Under the pieces are notes generated by a model. The model did not search any database, had not been told where the DNA came from, and saw nothing but the letters and a program-made list of their open reading frames with translations. Made by a program: the position numbers and the translations under genes. This document shows, one piece after another, positions 6,836 to 15,676 of a stretch of 33,607 nucleotides of DNA. The DNA is from a virus (lineage: Duplodnaviria; Caudoviricetes): positions 1 to 33,607 of IMG/VR virus record IMGVR_UViG_3300027744_000063; one strand, given 5' to 3'. Positions within the stretch are counted from its first letter, which is position 1; each line of letters begins with the position of its first letter.

Positions 6836-9800
6836 ATGGCACGGATTCTTTCGCAAGAAGAGATTGACGCACAATTTGGAGGCGGCTTCCGTGCTGAAAT
6901 AGCACCTGCTGGGTTAGGCACTAGGTTTGGTGCAGCTATTGATCGTTCGCAAGCCGGTCTTCTTGGCATTGGTGAAGCCGCTGGATTGCCTTTAGGTGAT
7001 CTTCGCCGCCAAAACCAATTTGAACAAGAAGAATCAATGCAGCGGTATTTTAGGGATAACCCTAATGACCCGCAATCTTACAAAGATGTTGAAGGCGTTG
7101 GTTCGGCACTGCGTTATGCCCGTGGTTTAGCCATTGACTCATCCCCCGAACTTATAACAAGTTTAGCTACTGGCGGTACTGGCGCTTTAATGGGTCTTGG
7201 CACTGCTGGTCGTATTGGCTTAGCTGCTGCTGCAAATTACCCATCTGCTGTAGGCGACATTCTTCAAAACCAACGTCAAGAAGCCGGTCAAACTGCCTTA
7301 GGCGTAGCTGGTTTATTAGGTGTTCCTTACGCCGCTGCCGATTTAGTCGGTCTTGATGCTGCTTTAGCCAGTGGCAAAATGATGCGCACGGGTATCAAAC
7401 GTCTTGACGAAATGCAGGGTGTTCGCGGTGGCTTAGCTCGTACTGGTGCCAACGTTGCTCTAAACGCACCTATTGAAGGCGCAAGCGAAACATTCCAAGA
7501 GCTGGTAAACCAAGCCGGTCGCATGGCGGTAAACCCACGTCAGACCATGTTTAACCCAGAAGCCAACGAGCGCTATCTGGAATCATTCATTGGCGGTGCC
7601 ACGTTAGGTGGTGCCGCTTCTGGCGTTTTAGGTGGTTGGCGTCGTAGTGAGCAGTACCAGCCCCCAGAACAAGAAACCGATCTTTTAAGCGGGCAAAAAC
7701 CGCAAGCACCAGCGCCACAACAATATGGTTTGGTTACACAACCAGCGCCATTGCAGCAGCGAATTGACCAGCAACTCGGTATTGGCGCTCGCACTACACC
7801 TAAAGATTACGCAAAGCAATTTGCAGCTGCCTATGATGAACCTAGTGGCCAGTATGCCACCGACCCCGTAACAGGTCTTGAAAAACAATTGTCTGTTGGT
7901 GAATATCAGCAGATGACAAACGCATCTTTGGATTTAACTGAATCAAAACCAGCTATTGCAGCTGCGGCTACAGCAGTTAACGCAAAAATAGAACGTGACC
8001 CTAAAGATTTATTTATCAGGGATACGTTAAAAGTAATCCCGAATCAGTACAGCCGACAGTTATTTGACATTATGGCTGAGAGCGGAGTTGATCCTCAGTC
8101 TGACTTGATGGCTCCTATTTGGAACTACGCCGCACAGAAGTACATGGGAAAAGGCCGGTACGAAAAAGCTGTTCAGTTGATGGACGAAGCCATCATAAAC
8201 GCACGCAAGGGAGCACCAAGTGGCATACCAACTTCAACTGGACTGGGAACTGCAGGAGGCGTGGGAGTCGGGGGCGCTGTCGTTCCGGGAGCTGTGGGAG
8301 CTGCAGGATCAGCTCCTTCTATCCAAGGCGCAGTTGGTGGAACTGCCGCCGGAACTGGAGCCCCACTTCAACAAGCTGGTATTCTTCCAGACACCAGCGG
8401 TCAACCATCTACCACTGTAACAACTGCGCCTACTGATCTAACAACCCCTGCTGCGACTACATCTAAATTCAGACGTGCTCCTAAACCCATGACTGTGTTG
8501 GAAGCCGCTGAAGCTGCTAAAGCCCAACAAACGGGAACTCGCAAGCAAGCCACCTTAGCTCGTGGTGAAGTTACACCTGATGTTGTTAGTAAATTGTCCG
8601 ATGACCAGTTGGCTACTGAGCTGACTAACGTCAACATTAGCGATGCAGAATATGCTTTGCTGCAGCAAGAACAGGCGCGGCGTAGCCAGAAAGACGCCGT
8701 TGATGAACGTCAAGTTGTATTGCGACAAATCTTTGGTGATCGTAATGGCGACATTATTTTTGATGTTGTTGGTATGGGCATGTCTGAGCCAGAAGCTGCG
8801 GCCAAGTACAACACTAGCCGCCAGAACATCCAGAAAATTGCTGGTGCAACAGGACAGAAGACATGGCCTGAACGGATTCTTAGAGCAAAAACTAAATTTG
8901 GTTTAACCGATGCTCAAATTGCTGACGCCTTTAACACTACCGCGCCCGATAGTTTAGAAAGCCAAGTGCAGACTGATGTGTTTGGTCAGAGCCAAGAGCG
9001 CATGGATGAAGGCGAAGCCATTGAAGCCGGCCTTGAAAATATCGTCAAAACCGCAGGTGCTAGCACTGCCGCAGTCGAAGGTTTTACTGATCTACAAAAC
9101 GAAATTGATGCTACGTTGGAAGCTCTGGCTGCTGAGACTGACGAAGCTGTTCTTAAAGAACTCAACGAAAAGCTGGCTGAACAACTTGTTAAAGTTCGCG
9201 CCGTTGAAAAACGCGCTCAAGCAGAAGTTAGAGCTAATGCTGGTCGCAAATCTAAAAAGGATGAGGCTGACGAAGCTGTCGCGGAAACCGTTAAACCTGT
9301 AGGAGAACCAGATGCCGTTCAAGTCACAAGCACAGCAGTCGTACCTGTTCAGCCAAAAACCGAAGCTGGCAAAGGAGTGGGCGGCCAAGTACGGCGTACC
9401 GAAAAACCTGCCAGCAAAGGCCAAGTCACCGTCCAAGGTCAAGCCAAAGAGCAAGTAAATAAAGGTCAAGTCCTGTGGAATAACCTTGTTGCTAAGACTC
9501 CCGGGTTAGTACCCTACGAGCAGTTAACCAAGTTAGAGCAGGACTACCTGACCGACTTGGCTGTTCGTACCAATGGCAAACCTGTGGTTGCCAAAGAGAT
9601 GGGCTTGCAGCAGTTGCTGACTAAAGAGCCAATCACCATTGAAGGTGAGACTCGGATTATTGATGAGCAAGTCACTACACAAGTAGCTGCTTTGCCTGCA
9701 CCCCAAGTTGAACGCCTTGAACAGCACTATGGCGCTAAACGTGGCAGTGCCGAGTTCTTGGAAAAAGTCCAAGCTGACATTACAAAGTACGTTACGCAAG

Positions 9801-12800
9801 GTGCAGAAGCCGTTGCCGGTGCTATTCGCAGCATTATTAAAGCGATGGCCGAAGGCGTCCTTGCCATGGGTATTGTGTTCAACCCGAACATTACCAAAGA
9901 TGCATTCACTTTAAATGTTGCTAAGACGTTTGAGCAGACCATTGAAGTAACCCAAGCAGTACCCGCTGTAGCCAAAGCCCAAATGTCGCCTACTGCACAA
10001 GCAGTTTACGAAGCCATGGCTCCCGTTGCAATGAAGTCTGGTAAGTGGTTCATGGTTGCTGACAAGCCTAACGGCATGTTGCACATCTTTAAAGAAGACG
10101 GCTCACACGCATTGTCCGATCCAACGCTGTACGGCAAAGATACCGGCGACGTTCTTGCAGCGGTTTCCTCGCTTGAAGGCGGAGCAAAAGTTACTCCTGC
10201 CGGTAAATTTACTCTCAAAGCTAGAGCATCCACGTACGCTGGCGGCCAAGAGCTCATCTTGGTTGAGTCAAAAGATTACACAGGCTACATTGCCATTCAC
10301 GCTGCAGACACCAGCACACCTTCTGAAAACCGTTTAGGTCGATTAGATACGCCTACCGCAGCAGACAACCGAGTTAGCTACGGCTGTATCAATACCAAGC
10401 ATGATACGTTTATCAACGAGATTGCTCCCAACATTGCCAATCTTGATGGCGGTATGGTGTTTGTTGTGCCAGATGCCCAAGAGCAAGCAGCTCAGATGTT
10501 TGCTGCCGAGACTCGTACAGAGACCCGCACCGAAGGTGGCCAAGGAGCTAAAGGCGTTGCAGCTGCTTCTGTCGTGGGCAAAGAAGAGAACATGCTGTTT
10601 GGTAAAGACTTACCCACAGTACAAGCACCAAAGCTTGTAAACAATGGCCGCACTCTTGATTTGGTTATTGATGGCAAAGTTACCAAAACGTACGACTTGG
10701 TAAGCCAAGGATTGTGGGATGCGTACAAAGGTAGACCTGAAGCGCAAGAAAATATGTTGCAAAACCAAGGCCCGCGACAAATAAGATCAGAAGCAATTGA
10801 AGCTTTAGAAGATGCGCAACGAGTTTATTCGGAGCAAGCCCCTCTGTCCCGAGTTGAGAATGACGCTATCCAAGCGTTGGCTAACAATGATACGTCACTG
10901 ATGAAACGTATTGTGACTAATCTAACAATTAGAGATTCAGTTTTGCGGATGCTGTCTTCGGCTTTGTCGTATCCCGGACAGCCTTATAGTGATTTTAGCG
11001 GTCTTGCAGCCATGAGTGAATATGACTCTCGCGCTAAATTAACTGCGGAAAACATTTTGCGTTACGCCCCTGAGTACATGCTCAAAAATGCAAACATTCC
11101 AGCAGAGTTTAAAGACATTCAGTTCGGTAAAGACCGTGTGGCAAACCAACCTTATACAGCTGTTGGACTAGCCGCTGAAATTAAAAACTTTATTCGCGCT
11201 GACATTACAGACCGCAAATTAGTTATTGTTGACAGTATTGATGATTTGTTAAATTCAGGTACGCCTGAAGTCCAAGCTCTTGGTGAAGCTATTCAAGCTA
11301 AAGGTGCTTACGGTGTTGCTCAAGGCGGAGTTGCTTATCTTATTGCCAACCGCATTCAACAAGGTCAAGGCCGTGCTAAATTTATGCACGAGGTTGGAGC
11401 TCACCTTGGTTTAGAAAACTTGTTGCCTACTGCGGTCTACGACAGATTAGTTGATCAAATTGCGACGTGGGCTGGCTCAAACAGAGATTCTCTTGAAGCT
11501 CAACTAGCAGCTAAAGCTAAAGCCCGTGTTGGTTACGCAAAAACACCTACTGCCGACGAACGTGAAGAACTGCTTGCGTATTTTATTGAAGAAGCCATGC
11601 TTGCCGGCGTTGACCCAACAGCAGCAGGTAAAGAATCTGGCCCGTTGATGGCTTGGTTCCGTACATTGTGGGCTGCATTTAAAGTTGCAGTGCGCAAACT
11701 TGGCTTTAAGCCAGAAAATCTAAAAGCACAAGACGTTGTCAACTTGGCGTTTGGCGCTGCTCGTTTAGAGATGAACGGTTCTTGGCACGGCACTGCTGCC
11801 ACGTTTCGCCGGTTTAACCATGAGTTTATGAGTTCGGGCGAAGGCGCTCAAGCGTACGGTTGGGGCAGTTATATTGCTCAAGCTGTTGGTATTGGTAAAG
11901 GTTATTGGTGGAATGACGTTAAGCGTAAAGAAACATCTACTGTTGAAAATACACTTAAACAATACGTCGGATGGCGTTTTGCCGAATCAGTTTTGCACCC
12001 AGTAGACAGAGAAGAAATTGCTTACGCTGGCTCGCAAATAAAAGTAGCTAAGGACTTAGCAGAAGCAGTTTATATGAATCCGGCTGAGTTTGCGACGCCC
12101 GGCTATTTAGCGCGCCGTTTCCTTGAAGCCGGATTGGACTATATTAAATTAGTTTCGCCAACAGGGGAAAAGAAAACTGTCCGAATTGGTGGCCCAGCCG
12201 GCAACTTAATGCGCGTAGACATGGCGGTGTCTAACGATGAAATGATTAACTGGGATTCGCCTTTTGCGTACCAACCAGAAATTGTTCGGGACTTTGTTAA
12301 AGGCGAAGCTGCTACTATTAAAGACCTGAACGACAATAAAGGCGCTAATATCCGCATTAAAACTGGCGAAGATATTTACAAATATTTAGTTGCTCGTTTT
12401 TGGAACGAGTCTAAAGGCACTGGGCCGTGGAAAGACGCAAGCCCAGAAGTAAGAATGGCCGTCAAAGAAAAAGCCTCTAAATATTTAGAATCCAAAGGCA
12501 TTCAAGGTATTCGATATCTCGACGCTGAAAGCCGAGACAATACTTTAGACAATATCACTTTTAGTAAAAATGGCAAAGTAATAAAAAGCCGCGCCGGTAT
12601 TTTGCAAGCGTACTTTACCCCCGGAGCAATTGTGCAAGGGTATGGCGGCCCCGATAAAGTCATTCGTTTTGACCCTGCCAAAGAACTGATTACAGTCATT
12701 GCTGTTGATAACGACGGAAATCCTCGTCGCGGCGAACGTGAAAGAACGCACTTCACAATACCTAGCGTTAAAGACGTTAGCTTTGCTATGAAAGAGCGGG

Positions 12801-15676
12801 GGTATATTACTAACACAACAAATCGCACGCGCAATTTTGTTATCTTTAATGAAAAGAACATCCAACGTGTTGGTTCTCAAACAGCTGCCGATAAACAACG
12901 CATAAAGTTTGGTGTAAATGCGCCAAACCAAGGAACTATCCAACGCAACATTGCCAAGTTGCCTAGAGCTGCACAGCAACCTGCGCGTTTGTCTTTGGGT
13001 GCTATCGGTGATGCAGTCAATAAAGGCTTAGACTACGTTGTCTTTACCAGCGATTTGGTTGACCGTGCTACTAAGTCAGGCGTTAGTTCTGCTAAAAAGT
13101 TTGTGGACTTAGTTGGCAAAAGCAAATCCGAAGCCCGCGAAAATGAGATTGCCGTTGAGAAAATCTCTGACATGTATGCCCTTGTCCCTGAAAAAGACCG
13201 TGGCACTGGCGATGAAAGCGTAAACCGTTTCTTGTTTGACTCTACACGCGAAGGCAAGTGGGGTTACGGCAAGTACCGCAATGATGACATGGGAGCACGC
13301 TTTGATGCGTTGGCTCCAGAATCACAAGCATATGTAGAAGCTGTCTTTGCCCATGGCAGTGACATGTTGGCTAAGAAAAAGAAACTTGTGTTGGATTCAA
13401 CCAACAGTGAGTATGACGCCATGATTGCTGCTGCTAAGGCCGACGGCGATACAGCCAATGAAGTTAAACTGACAAAAGAAAAAGAAGCTACCCTCAAACG
13501 TTTCCAAACTTTGTTCAAGATTCGTGACGGTATTCCTTACGCTCCAATCAAACGCAATGGTAGCCATGTAGTTATTGCCAAGTCTAAAGAATACTTGGAT
13601 GCCGAAGCTGCAAACGACAAAAAGAAAATTGCTGAGTTGGAAAGCAATAGTGACCACTACCACGTCAGCTTTACAGACGGCAAGTGGGAGGCACGCACTC
13701 TCCAACAGGACTTAAACGACCAAGGTTTCTTTGACGACGTGCAGATTGCCGAGCGCGATACCGTTATTGACGAGATGTTTAGCGGCCACTCTGCTTTGCG
13801 TGAACTGACTAAGATGCGTTCGCGTGTTGATGCGCAAGCCAAGGATGGCGATAAATCTTCGTCTAAGATGCTAAGCCTAATTAGTCAGATGTACTTGGAG
13901 GCGTTGGCAGAGGGTAGTGCTCGCAAATCTGAGATGCGTCGTCGTGGCGTGGCTGGTGAAGTGGACATGATTCGCTCGTTTGCCCAGCAGGGTCGTGCTG
14001 ATGCCAACTTTATGGCGTCTATTAAGTACAACCCACAAGTTCAAGACGCATTGCAAGAGATGCGCAACCAAGTCAAAAAAGGCGACCGCGAACGCAAGTC
14101 AGAAATCTTTAATGAATTGGCTAAGCGTTATGTCCAGTCTTTGGATTATGTTGAGCGCCCATGGTTAAACAAGTTGACTCGCATGTCGTCCTTGTACTTC
14201 TTGGCGACTAGCCCTGCGTATTACTTACAGAACTTGACACAGCCATGGATGATGTCGGTTCCCGCAATGGCCGGCAAGCATAACTACAGCCAAGCATCGA
14301 CAGCATTATTTAAAGCTTACACCGAACTTGGTGGAGTAATGAAGTCTGCCAAGTTGCTAAAACAACAGTTTGACTTTAACAAAGTGCCAGCTGATGTGCG
14401 CGATGCCATTAAAGAATTGGTCAACCGTGGCAAGATTGATATCGGTTTAGATACCGAGATGGGTGAATTTAAAGTCGAAGGTGACGGATACTTCGCTGGC
14501 AAGATTAGCGCTGCTGATAAAGCTCTGCGTTTAGCCGTACAAAAAGTTGAATCTATCAACCGCTTGTCTACTGCCATGGCTGCGTATCGTTTAGAACTAG
14601 CTAAAACTGGTAACAAACAAGATGCTATTAACTACGCTGACCGCATCCTGACAGAGACGCACGGTGACTACACCAGCTTCAATGCCCCTCGTGCGTTTAA
14701 CACTGGCGTGGGTAAAGTAGCATTGCAATTCCGCAAGTTTCAATTAATTCAGTTATCGTTCTACGCCAAACTAATTAAAGACGCTTTGCAGGGTGCTGAT
14801 CGCGCTGCGGCTTTGAAGACTTTAGCTTATTCGCTAGGCCACACAGGTTTGCTTGCAGGAGCTATGGGCATGCCGGGTTACGCAGCTATAGCATGGGCAA
14901 TTAACGCTCTACTTGGTGACGAAGACGAACCATATGACATTACCAACGAAATTCGCAAAGCCATTGGTGACGAACAAGTTGCAAACTTAATTTTGCGCGG
15001 AGCTCCTACACTGGTAGGTGCTGATATTTCCGGCAAGGTTGGTGCGGGCAACATGCTGTCTATCATGCCGTTTAGTCAGGCTGACTTAAGTACAACTGCC
15101 GGTAGAGCCGAAGCTTTTGGTACGCTAATTGGCGGCGCTTCTCTTGGCATGGTCTCAAGAATGATTGATGGTTTGGGTTTGATGATGAGTGGTGATTGGC
15201 ATCGCGGCTTAGAACAAACAATGCCTAAGGGCGTGTCTGATGCTATGAAAGCGTACCGTATTGCCAATGAGGGGATGACTCGCCGTAACGGTGATATTAT
15301 CTTGCCGCCTGACGAAGTATCAGCTATGGATACACTATTCCAAGCTATTGGGGTTCAACCAGTTAAACAAACTGTCACTTACGAACGCCAAACTCTGATG
15401 AAAGAAACAACTCAGAACTTTACTGAGCGCACAACAAAAATCAAAAATGATTATGTCAAGGCAGCTCGTGCTGGTGATTCTGAAGCCCAAGGGGAAGCGC
15501 GGGCCGCTTGGCAGAAACTGCAAGCGGTTAAACGAGAAAACGGCGTAAACACAACGCCTTTGTCTGAGTTACTTAGAGCTCCAGCTGAGCAGAAAAAACG
15601 TGAAAAAATGACAGTTGGTGGTGTACAGTACACTAAAGGAACCCGTAAACTAGCTGAAGAAATCGCAGGAGAATAG
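6836..15676 (+). CDS. Giant polyvalent internal virion protein (2946 aa): HTH, L,D-transpeptidase-like, zincin-like, ART-like and C-terminal LPD/PLxRFG-like regions
   Basis: Uninterrupted ORF with GAGG SD. G/A-rich hydrophobic N-terminus. Motifs IH..SYGCIN, HEVGAH, WHGT..GEGAQAYGWGSY and THGDY..QFRKFQ. Confidence 0.85.
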   Translation: MARILSQEEIDAQFGGGFRAEIAPAGLGTRFGAAIDRSQAGLLGIGEAAGLPLGDLRRQNQFEQEESMQRYFRDNPNDPQSYKDVEGVGSALRYARGLAIDSSPELITSLATGGTGALMGLGTAGRIGLAAAANYPSAVGDILQNQRQEAGQTALGVAGLLGVPYAAADLVGLDAALASGKMMRTGIKRLDEMQGVRGGLARTGANVALNAPIEGASETFQELVNQAGRMAVNPRQTMFNPEANERYLESFIGGATLGGAASGVLGGWRRSEQYQPPEQETDLLSGQKPQAPAPQQYGLVTQPAPLQQRIDQQLGIGARTTPKDYAKQFAAAYDEPSGQYATDPVTGLEKQLSVGEYQQMTNASLDLTESKPAIAAAATAVNAKIERDPKDLFIRDTLKVIPNQYSRQLFDIMAESGVDPQSDLMAPIWNYAAQKYMGKGRYEKAVQLMDEAIINARKGAPSGIPTSTGLGTAGGVGVGGAVVPGAVGAAGSAPSIQGAVGGTAAGTGAPLQQAGILPDTSGQPSTTVTTAPTDLTTPAATTSKFRRAPKPMTVLEAAEAAKAQQTGTRKQATLARGEVTPDVVSKLSDDQLATELTNVNISDAEYALLQQEQARRSQKDAVDERQVVLRQIFGDRNGDIIFDVVGMGMSEPEAAAKYNTSRQNIQKIAGATGQKTWPERILRAKTKFGLTDAQIADAFNTTAPDSLESQVQTDVFGQSQERMDEGEAIEAGLENIVKTAGASTAAVEGFTDLQNEIDATLEALAAETDEAVLKELNEKLAEQLVKVRAVEKRAQAEVRANAGRKSKKDEADEAVAETVKPVGEPDAVQVTSTAVVPVQPKTEAGKGVGGQVRRTEKPASKGQVTVQGQAKEQVNKGQVLWNNLVAKTPGLVPYEQLTKLEQDYLTDLAVRTNGKPVVAKEMGLQQLLTKEPITIEGETRIIDEQVTTQVAALPAPQVERLEQHYGAKRGSAEFLEKVQADITKYVTQGAEAVAGAIRSIIKAMAEGVLAMGIVFNPNITKDAFTLNVAKTFEQTIEVTQAVPAVAKAQMSPTAQAVYEAMAPVAMKSGKWFMVADKPNGMLHIFKEDGSHALSDPTLYGKDTGDVLAAVSSLEGGAKVTPAGKFTLKARASTYAGGQELILVESKDYTGYIAIHAADTSTPSENRLGRLDTPTAADNRVSYGCINTKHDTFINEIAPNIANLDGGMVFVVPDAQEQAAQMFAAETRTETRTEGGQGAKGVAAASVVGKEENMLFGKDLPTVQAPKLVNNGRTLDLVIDGKVTKTYDLVSQGLWDAYKGRPEAQENMLQNQGPRQIRSEAIEALEDAQRVYSEQAPLSRVENDAIQALANNDTSLMKRIVTNLTIRDSVLRMLSSALSYPGQPYSDFSGLAAMSEYDSRAKLTAENILRYAPEYMLKNANIPAEFKDIQFGKDRVANQPYTAVGLAAEIKNFIRADITDRKLVIVDSIDDLLNSGTPEVQALGEAIQAKGAYGVAQGGVAYLIANRIQQGQGRAKFMHEVGAHLGLENLLPTAVYDRLVDQIATWAGSNRDSLEAQLAAKAKARVGYAKTPTADEREELLAYFIEEAMLAGVDPTAAGKESGPLMAWFRTLWAAFKVAVRKLGFKPENLKAQDVVNLAFGAARLEMNGSWHGTAATFRRFNHEFMSSGEGAQAYGWGSYIAQAVGIGKGYWWNDVKRKETSTVENTLKQYVGWRFAESVLHPVDREEIAYAGSQIKVAKDLAEAVYMNPAEFATPGYLARRFLEAGLDYIKLVSPTGEKKTVRIGGPAGNLMRVDMAVSNDEMINWDSPFAYQPEIVRDFVKGEAATIKDLNDNKGANIRIKTGEDIYKYLVARFWNESKGTGPWKDASPEVRMAVKEKASKYLESKGIQGIRYLDAESRDNTLDNITFSKNGKVIKSRAGILQAYFTPGAIVQGYGGPDKVIRFDPAKELITVIAVDNDGNPRRGERERTHFTIPSVKDVSFAMKERGYITNTTNRTRNFVIFNEKNIQRVGSQTAADKQRIKFGVNAPNQGTIQRNIAKLPRAAQQPARLSLGAIGDAVNKGLDYVVFTSDLVDRATKSGVSSAKKFVDLVGKSKSEARENEIAVEKISDMYALVPEKDRGTGDESVNRFLFDSTREGKWGYGKYRNDDMGARFDALAPESQAYVEAVFAHGSDMLAKKKKLVLDSTNSEYDAMIAAAKADGDTANEVKLTKEKEATLKRFQTLFKIRDGIPYAPIKRNGSHVVIAKSKEYLDAEAANDKKKIAELESNSDHYHVSFTDGKWEARTLQQDLNDQGFFDDVQIAERDTVIDEMFSGHSALRELTKMRSRVDAQAKDGDKSSSKMLSLISQMYLEALAEGSARKSEMRRRGVAGEVDMIRSFAQQGRADANFMASIKYNPQVQDALQEMRNQVKKGDRERKSEIFNELAKRYVQSLDYVERPWLNKLTRMSSLYFLATSPAYYLQNLTQPWMMSVPAMAGKHNYSQASTALFKAYTELGGVMKSAKLLKQQFDFNKVPADVRDAIKELVNRGKIDIGLDTEMGEFKVEGDGYFAGKISAADKALRLAVQKVESINRLSTAMAAYRLELAKTGNKQDAINYADRILTETHGDYTSFNAPRAFNTGVGKVALQFRKFQLIQLSFYAKLIKDALQGADRAAALKTLAYSLGHTGLLAGAMGMPGYAAIAWAINALLGDEDEPYDITNEIRKAIGDEQVANLILRGAPTLVGADISGKVGAGNMLSIMPFSQADLSTTAGRAEAFGTLIGGASLGMVSRMIDGLGLMMSGDWHRGLEQTMPKGVSDAMKAYRIANEGMTRRNGDIILPPDEVSAMDTLFQAIGVQPVKQTVTYERQTLMKETTQNFTERTTKIKNDYVKAARAGDSEAQGEARAAWQKLQAVKRENGVNTTPLSELLRAPAEQKKREKMTVGGVQYTKGTRKLAEEIAGE
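8220..8420 (+). CDS. Putative overprinted gene (66 aa, acidic, W/L/E-rich) in the +1 frame of the giant gene
   Basis: AAGGGAG (8207-8213) lies 6 nt before GTG. The host frame becomes low-complexity G/A/V/T with many GGA codons over this interval. Confidence 0.6.
   Translation: MAYQLQLDWELQEAWESGALSFRELWELQDQLLLSKAQLVELPPELEPHFNKLVFFQTPAVNHLPL
9312..9458 (+). CDS. Putative overprinted gene (48 aa, basic) MPFKSQAQQSYLFSQKPKLAKEWAAKYGVPKNLPAKAKSPSKVKPKSK in the +1 frame of the giant gene
   Basis: AGGAGA (9301-9306) before ATG 9312. In-frame TAG just upstream (9300-9302). TAA at 9456-9458. Below the ORF-track size cutoff. Confidence 0.7.
   Translation: MPFKSQAQQSYLFSQKPKLAKEWAAKYGVPKNLPAKAKSPSKVKPKSK

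Follow-up and report, generated by a model that had tools for sequence, protein, structure and literature searches.

A small basic-protein gene nested out of frame in a giant virion gene of a tailed phage, a member of a large family and probably a case of engulfment

Introduction

Most of the nested genes recognised in tailed phages are spanin genes, with a few isolated cases besides, and overprinting is their usual explanation. In phage lambda, the Rz1 gene is fully nested on the same strand in the +1 frame of Rz and has its own start, and the DNA of its periplasmic domain doubles as a flexible linker of Rz (PMC6139136). According to the same paper, annotation often overlooks o-spanins, and readthrough of a stop codon is discussed there as one way to embedding; its survey found no family that has both embedded and separated members. 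The present study concerns gene 2, a predicted gene for a 48-aa basic protein at positions 9312..9458, nested in the +1 frame of a gene for a giant 2946-aa virion protein (6836..15676) in the virus record IMGVR_UViG_3300027744_000063 (Duplodnaviria; Caudoviricetes). The whole 33.6-kb record (33,607 nt) was analysed and is referred to below as the window; all features described lie on its + strand. Unlike Rz and Rz1, which are obligate partners, members of the gene 2 family occur free, fused and nested in unrelated host genes, with no known partnership.

Other described overlaps resemble this locus in part. The phiX174 gene E, situated within gene D, shares with gene 2 an internal overlap, dual constraint and a biased composition (PMC8227390). 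Overprinting makes the nested protein de novo, whereas in the present case the nested frame looks like the older one and the host linker like a new reading, closer to the de novo overlapping extension or spacer of the same source. In mycobacteriophage Patience, out-of-frame ORFs embedded in genes 91 and 20 were seen by proteomics and are translated from internal ribosome-binding sites (PMC4324244); they have no database relatives and show ambiguous conservation, in contrast to the very large family and clear selection of gene 2. The giant host gene resembles those of the polyvalent, DarB-like virion proteins (PMC5512222) in being giant and modular, in lying in a virion operon and in its DarB-like C-terminal match, and differs from them in lacking any Pfam polyvalent-domain match. 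The main text of that paper contains neither "overlap" nor "linker", and nested genes are unmentioned in the passages found.

Among free genes, the proteins of PHROG 1375 (Patience gp10, Barnyard gp9, PBI1 gp10) are like the gene 2 family in having a core F-[KR]-S-x-x-Q...A-x-x-W/K and a basic tail, and are often encoded in head-gene clusters. They differ in being free genes with an N-terminal basic extension, and the description of that family, to which PHROGs assigns no function, does not include a nested form. The T4 internal proteins and other small DNA-associated virion proteins are likewise small, basic, late and plausibly packaged. No sequence or fold similarity between the T4 internal proteins and the gene 2 product was found, and the likeness is one of analogy only. 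A literature search that left subscription journals and bioRxiv supplements outside its scope found no description of the family or of its nesting, and the parts seen of PMC8903798 and PMC4351075 contained nothing specific on either. Nested +1 genes are already established (spanins, phiX174, Patience); what is new here is one large family that is free, fused and nested.

The nested gene and selection on both reading frames

Gene 2 lies wholly inside the host ORF in a shifted frame and has its own start and ribosome-binding site. The Shine-Dalgarno (SD) motif AGGAGA (9301..9306) is followed by the 5-nt spacer ACCAG, the ATG at 9312 and, after 48 codons, the TAA at 9456-9458. In the window, the nested frame is closed by an in-frame TAG (9300..9302) that precedes the ATG by three codons; this stop is not conserved, and nested relatives have 1 to 192 open codons upstream. 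Across gene 2 the host frame reads DAVQVTST... at residues 826-875 (9311..9460) of the ORF 6836-15676, a linker of low complexity that results from reading the small gene out of frame. These elements, including the linker-like host frame, had been named in an original prediction made from the letters of the window alone, and all are found where it placed them. DNA near-identical to the window occurs in freshwater metagenomes.

The length of the ORF is unremarkable by itself, given that in related giant genes 9% of the 3383 other +1-frame ATGs open at least 48 codons. The SD motif of gene 2 is the strongest among the 76 +1-frame ATGs of the host gene (-7.3 kcal/mol). Because it combines this strongest SD motif with the lowest synonymous variability of the host gene and with homology to free-standing genes, gene 2 is more than a chance ORF, and it is very probably a real protein-coding gene.

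Synonymous variability was measured as the share of conserved host residues encoded by differing codons. In a first scan of 43 aligned relatives, mostly found through the gene 2 peptide, the lowest value of the whole host gene fell on residues 826-850 (0.09, against about 0.4-0.7 in most well-covered bins). The scan was repeated on 28 loci found through gene 1, a second nested ORF of the same host gene (described below), and hence independent of the gene 2 sequence; three of these were too short, leaving 25 informative loci. Gene 2 was found with ATG, purine-rich SD and intact core in 25 of the 25, one of them cut by a contig end, so the +1-frame conservation that the original prediction proposed as a check holds among relatives. 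In the gene-1-selected loci, the host synonymous fraction was 0.022 in the overlap versus 0.482 in the flank, and the nested-frame synonymous fraction was 0.263. Differences per host codon position 1, 2 and 3 amounted to 0.26, 0.09 and 0.07 in the overlap versus 0.37, 0.30 and 0.59 in the flank; that is, variation in the overlap moves to host position 1, the wobble position of the nested frame, and the host wobble position is frozen. Invariant residues numbered 17 of 33 in the nested frame versus 7 of 33 in the host frame. The same shift, in weaker form, was seen in the group of nested copies with a short host (an ORF of ~400 aa), where the value for position 3 falls from 0.49 to 0.20. These patterns indicate purifying selection on the nested frame, with the host frame kept open.

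Initiation and expression

In the clade of the window, an SD motif precedes 25 of 28 nested starts, as against 9% of 1412 other +1 ATGs. It is scarce in the other nested groups (3/25 and 0/16), which does not speak against internal initiation there, because the ordinary long genes of those loci mostly lack it too (6/55 and 1/72, versus 33/62). No sigma-70-like promoter was found between positions 7900 and 9900, where 1.5 were expected. The simplest route is then internal initiation on the late structural mRNA, by which gene 2 is likely translated. Six metatranscriptome runs were available as contigs only. One holds a contig of a relative across 9291-9409, with 10 differences in 119 nt, and the remaining runs do not cover gene 2 save for a 34-nt piece at 9450-9483; such contigs, which may derive from DNA, reveal nothing about strand or level and are neutral on gene 2 expression.

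A family found free, fused and nested

A profile built from 49 relatives finds 4545 clusters at 50% identity. The first loci to be sampled, which are biased towards the query, comprised 135 distinct copies, of which 53 were nested in giant ORFs, 16 were nested in an acidic ORF of ~400 aa, 57 were free and 9 were N-terminal in longer proteins. A less biased, motif-only sample was matched on the first 26 nt; 160 of its 240 returned loci had flanks, and 150 of these were distinct. It contained 88 free copies, 15 long ones and 47 nested ones, the last all in the +1 frame and none in +2, each open over at least 39 codons and none broken, with a background openness over 25 codons of 22%. Stand-alone homologs had been foreseen, and free copies are indeed carried by cultured phages, two of them unannotated (in C75C1, L081:5001, and in Synechococcus phage S-CBS2, L082:4001). 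A scan of GTDB gave 35 loci, 12 of them nested; 34 are contigs of metagenome-assembled genomes, for which no host assignment is possible. No Pfam family matches the gene 2 peptide. A language-model lead to Pfam DUF3008 (PF11450; scores 0.84 and 0.87) was rejected, as 0 of 49 members match it at E up to 1.

With the overlap removed, the hosts of the nested copies form six BLAST components (28, 22, 16, 1, 1 and 1 members), a number that partial sequences may inflate; the unrelated host types are giant genes in five components and one portal-capsid gene. The latter, the ~400-aa ORF, occupies the scaffold position: it lies after the terminase, between the portal and the next virion structural gene (capsid). 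No family match was obtained for the ORF itself, and in the Flavobacterium elemo phages, where the nested gene is missing, a homolog carries the annotation "structural protein". The earlier proposal that giant genes may grow by engulfing small genes out of frame agrees with the nesting seen in giant genes, but its restriction to giants is not borne out. The DA[IV]Q linker, which the proposal had noted as recurrent in giant virion proteins, corresponds to the shadow of MPFKS, the start of the nested peptide, and a recurring "DAIQ/NAVQ" motif of phage structural proteins can be explained likewise.

Origin of the overlap

The host-frame reading over 69 nested copies is rich in E (18%), A (12%), V (12%) and Q (10%), with almost no aromatics, and the cassette contributes only about 40-60 codons to the host, a small gain if giant genes are to grow mainly in this way. 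Among the first loci, TTC stands at codon 3 of 69 of 69 nested and 31 of 57 free copies; in the motif-only sample it does so in 47 of 47 nested and 46 of 103 non-nested copies. A TTT at this codon would create a stop in the host frame, so the constant use of TTC indicates that the host frame is protected too. The host frame is already open over 34 codons in 21 of 57 free copies and in 21 of 31 free TTC copies (0.235 for other genes). In L165 and L166, two relatives whose flanks still align, the host linker is missing as a block; the tree of the host C-terminal domain places both inside the gene-2-bearing clade, and their lack is therefore a loss. On the peptide tree, nested and free copies interleave, and a single nested clade is rejected (p-AU 0.016).

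Judged from such comparisons, gene 2 was probably engulfed as a pre-existing gene, with the host linker as its shadow. Engulfment of an existing small gene, as suggested at the outset, fits the data best, and the word "overprinted" in the title of the original prediction likely has the polarity wrong, whether engulfment was repeated or a ready-made dual-frame cassette spread by recombination: the nested frame looks old and the linker a new reading. The proposed course of events would be as follows. A Lys-rich gene read one base back yields a spacer rich in Glu, Ala, Val and Gln, and the main barrier to engulfment would be the single host stop that a TTT codon 3 makes. Where this codon is TTC, a neighbouring structural gene could take the copy in, through a readthrough fusion or through recombination in frame, with both products kept; after absorption the cassette would act as a removable block.

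Whether this amounts to a general and repeated route in tailed phages, by which small Lys-rich head-protein genes are swallowed by unrelated structural genes and still expressed from their own start, is an evenly balanced question. If it does, the swallowing genes would be those of giant ejected proteins and scaffold-position proteins, with the shifted frame serving as a harmless acidic spacer; many "linkers" of phage structural proteins would be hidden genes; annotation would overlook about a third of the motif-sampled copies of this family; and domain shuffling in giant proteins would use the frozen dual-coding DNA as a place to cross over. Being free, fused and nested, the last in two or more host gene types unrelated to one another, the family offers a natural series for how overlaps arise from an existing gene. 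Annotation that allows one gene per stretch misses a sizeable share of it (47 of 150 motif-sampled copies), and the function of this common small phage protein is testable in the cultured phages with free copies.

The product and its predicted function

The gene 2 product has a mass of 5.4 kDa, a pI of 10.4 and 12 K/R residues versus 1 D/E; Lys makes up 25% of it. Its AlphaFold model (mean pLDDT 82) is a two-helix hairpin (residues 6-15 and 17-27) followed by a disordered basic tail rich in Lys, Pro and Ser. The median net charge is +12 to +14 in all groups of the family, and the tails are uniformly basic. A PDB sequence search with the peptide gave only repeat-driven or weak matches. An o-spanin (Rz1) identity was considered and rejected; the peptide has neither a Cys nor a hydrophobic leader, and its host is a 2946-aa protein in a run of virion genes.

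The surroundings of free and fused copies were surveyed at 36 non-redundant loci, taking the two nearest large ORFs on each side. Nineteen loci had head or packaging neighbours, four had tail neighbours, four had only non-structural ones and nine had none annotated; in being small, basic and encoded among head genes, the family thus resembles internal head proteins. In addition, 44 of 49 family members match the PHROG 1375 profile at E up to 1 (best 9.5e-7), and Barnyard gp9 scores 25.9 bits on the family profile versus a shuffle maximum of 8.0. The gene 2 family is best read as a subfamily related to PHROG 1375. Barnyard gp9 leads on to Patience gp10 (PHROG 1375, E 1e-31), which lies between portal and protease among Arg/Lys-rich genes and adjoins very basic particle proteins. 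From composition and context, we tentatively propose a packaged, DNA-binding internal head protein that neutralises charge or organises DNA, a function to which we give slightly less than an even chance.

Weighing the reading and its alternatives

Taken as a whole, the reading of gene 2 as a selected nested gene that arose by engulfment of a pre-existing gene, is translated by internal initiation and yields a basic hairpin protein packed in the head and binding DNA appears fairly probable. A number of observations weigh against it. Gene 2 is lacking both from the giant ORF and from the whole record in L165, L166, L170, L174 and L175 (records 44-78% complete, too little for the 0 of 5 free copies elsewhere to be informative) and may be dispensable, the sole event that could be polarised is a loss, and no gain could be dated. 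The peptide tree has 36 columns, leaves 60 of 118 branches unresolved, is unrooted and is too weak to count origins; moreover, the pair counts and p-values given here treat related sequences as independent. The host ORFs are doubtful for two nested calls of the motif-only sample (L378 and L426). No nested copy was found in cultured phages by a tblastn search of 50,697 phage records with the peptide (blastn gave chance matches only), nor was one found in five giant-gene regions of cultured relatives (72 records matched) or in the head region of Flavobacterium phage elemo.

On the side of function, the hairpin model had no Foldseek match in the PDB at E up to 0.001 and no VIA-align match at Z 2 or more, and the conserved aromatic hairpin suggests a specific partner and not plain charge neutralisation. 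The gene 2 peptide itself matches PHROG 1375 weakly (E 0.011, residues 3-26); Patience gp10 is a distant relative, at 10.8 bits on the family profile versus a shuffle maximum of 6.4; and the profile scores of PBI1 gp10 and Chah gp78 are not above those of shuffles. Chah gp78 lies at 60 kb among hypothetical genes with no visible head cluster. Patience gp10 is listed as a virion protein on one particle spectrum, with four and two spectra in infected cells (PMC4324244, Table S1), and its neighbours gp111, gp11 and gp12 have 33, 30 and 33 spectra (PMC4324244). The gp10 spectra show that a distant free member is expressed and lend weak support to packaging.

Five alternatives were considered. In one of them, the hairpin would act as a module that binds a specific protein, whether as assembly factor or as head-targeting tag, by docking on scaffold, portal or inner capsid wall, and nesting in virion genes would couple its timing and amount to its partner. 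Such a module would suit the long members of the family: 79 of the best 150 family matches have at least 90 aa, the module is nearly always N-terminal, the remainders form 64 BLAST clusters of unrelated cargo, and Pfam matches are few (9 of 73 scanned long members, six of them to DUF5661). It would also suit the invariant residues M1, P2, F3, K4, S5, A7, Q8, P17 and A20, the first five or so of which are biased by the search pattern, and the nested copies in the portal-capsid gene. We nevertheless rate docking as rather unlikely, as most copies carry no cargo (the nested ones neither, save one of 98 codons), the tails are uniformly basic and no partner gene is constant across loci. An action of the product in the infected cell (host takeover, translation or nucleoid binding, late regulation), and not in the virion, is improbable. 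It would agree with the larger number of Patience gp10 spectra in infected cells than in particles, with the right-arm location of the cluster B mycobacteriophage homologs and with Streptomyces phage FlowerPower gene 48, which adjoins the holin, but the strong enrichment beside head genes opposes it, as does the time course of Patience gp10, which, in very small numbers, is more abundant at 30 min than at 2.5 h, like the particle-borne gp11 and gp12 and unlike the late non-particle gp32.

Under de novo overprinting, a linker would have given rise to the peptide in its +1 frame, free copies would be later escapes, and the nested frame would be the younger and less widespread one. Nesting is ancestral within the window's clade with a later loss, and the correspondence of K-rich and E-rich frames works both ways, yet we consider this origin very unlikely: conservation is higher in the nested frame, which is also far more widely distributed (4545 clusters), free or fused copies occur in actinophages as well as in myo-, sipho- and podovirus-like contexts, nesting is absent in 103 of 150 motif-sampled copies, and the host reading has no existence outside the overlap and is deletable. 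The N-terminal fusions seen elsewhere would also be in keeping with a nested start that gives a second form of the giant protein, in which the MPFKS module passes by a -1 frameshift into the host frame to yield a tagged C-terminal product of ~2100 aa. The window copy has no X XXY YYZ heptamer, however, and among signals of this type, the only ones examined, heptamers occur in 6 of 69 nested versus 22 of 57 free copies at scattered positions, so this form carries a very small probability. Least credible of all is a silent relic, an untranslated +1 ORF that is the by-product of a conserved host motif or of a DNA or RNA element; ORFs of such length are common in this frame, but the nested wobble is free and the host wobble frozen, SD and ATG are kept, and 0 of 47 motif-sampled nested copies are truncated. 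A selected, engulfed gene for a basic head protein remains our preferred reading.

The host gene, nested gene 1 and further observations

The window carries virion genes on the + strand and replication genes on the - strand, and the host gene closes a run of the former. Its C-terminal ~760 aa (residues 2177-2941) match PHROG 10089, DarB-like, at E 3.6e-62, and the genes upstream match internal virion, tail fibre and virion structural families; from this setting we infer that the host product is an ejected internal protein. No Pfam domain, the polyvalent ones included, scored above the cut-off in the host protein.

Nested gene 1 (8220..8420, 66 aa) has a GTG start and a strong SD motif, lies in the +1 frame and is unrelated in sequence to gene 2. 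Its conservation agrees with the earlier suggestion of a second nested gene in the same host: the host frame is open across it in 28 of 28 relatives, it coincides with a second synonymous trough at host residues 476-525 (0.21-0.26; 43 aligned relatives), and L165 and L166 keep it without having gene 2. No PHROG match was found for gene 1. A possible third trough, at residues 901-925, was dropped, the +1 ORF there having only 15 codons. RNA contigs fall on gene 1 in five of the six metatranscriptome runs (starts 8108-8235, ends 8344-8493), a weak hint in which two runs represent one study. Other +1-frame ATG ORFs of 45-87 codons with GGAG/GAGG-type SD motifs, distinct from genes 1 and 2, occur on the + strand in the giant genes of relatives (L163:8910, L168:8886, L169:6708 and L169:8883), and one of those in L169 sits at about the place of gene 1 in other relatives.

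By blastn, DNA homology to the window sets in at 9302-9303, on the SD motif, in 8 of the 18 relatives examined, also in cases where the host domain upstream is a different one. The first 105 nt of gene 2 are identical to those of L003 despite unlike upstream host domains (window 9302-9416 versus L003/L176), and contigs of metatranscriptome run X13 diverge exactly at 9312; domain swaps may use such dual-coding DNA as a place of crossover. A domain of ~60 aa that is absent from the window precedes the SD motif in many relatives (e.g., L163, L168 and L169). Downstream, residues 1030-1213 of the giant ORF (about 9920-10480) form a region found in some relatives only; its motif, His-x-x-Asp...Ser-Tyr-Gly-Cys-Ile-Asn, is reminiscent of L,D-transpeptidase-like domains, and Pfam gave no match for it.

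Two features were noted in the scaffold-position genes. In L093, L097, L104 and L106, a second short Lys-rich ORF of similar sequence lies in the +1 frame about 20-30 nt past the nested stop and is possibly another engulfed basic peptide. Furthermore, L392, L394, L410, L414, L433, L435, L441 and L457 carry a nested subfamily with two conserved Cys residues (for example ...AC(Y)...W(D/N)C..W).

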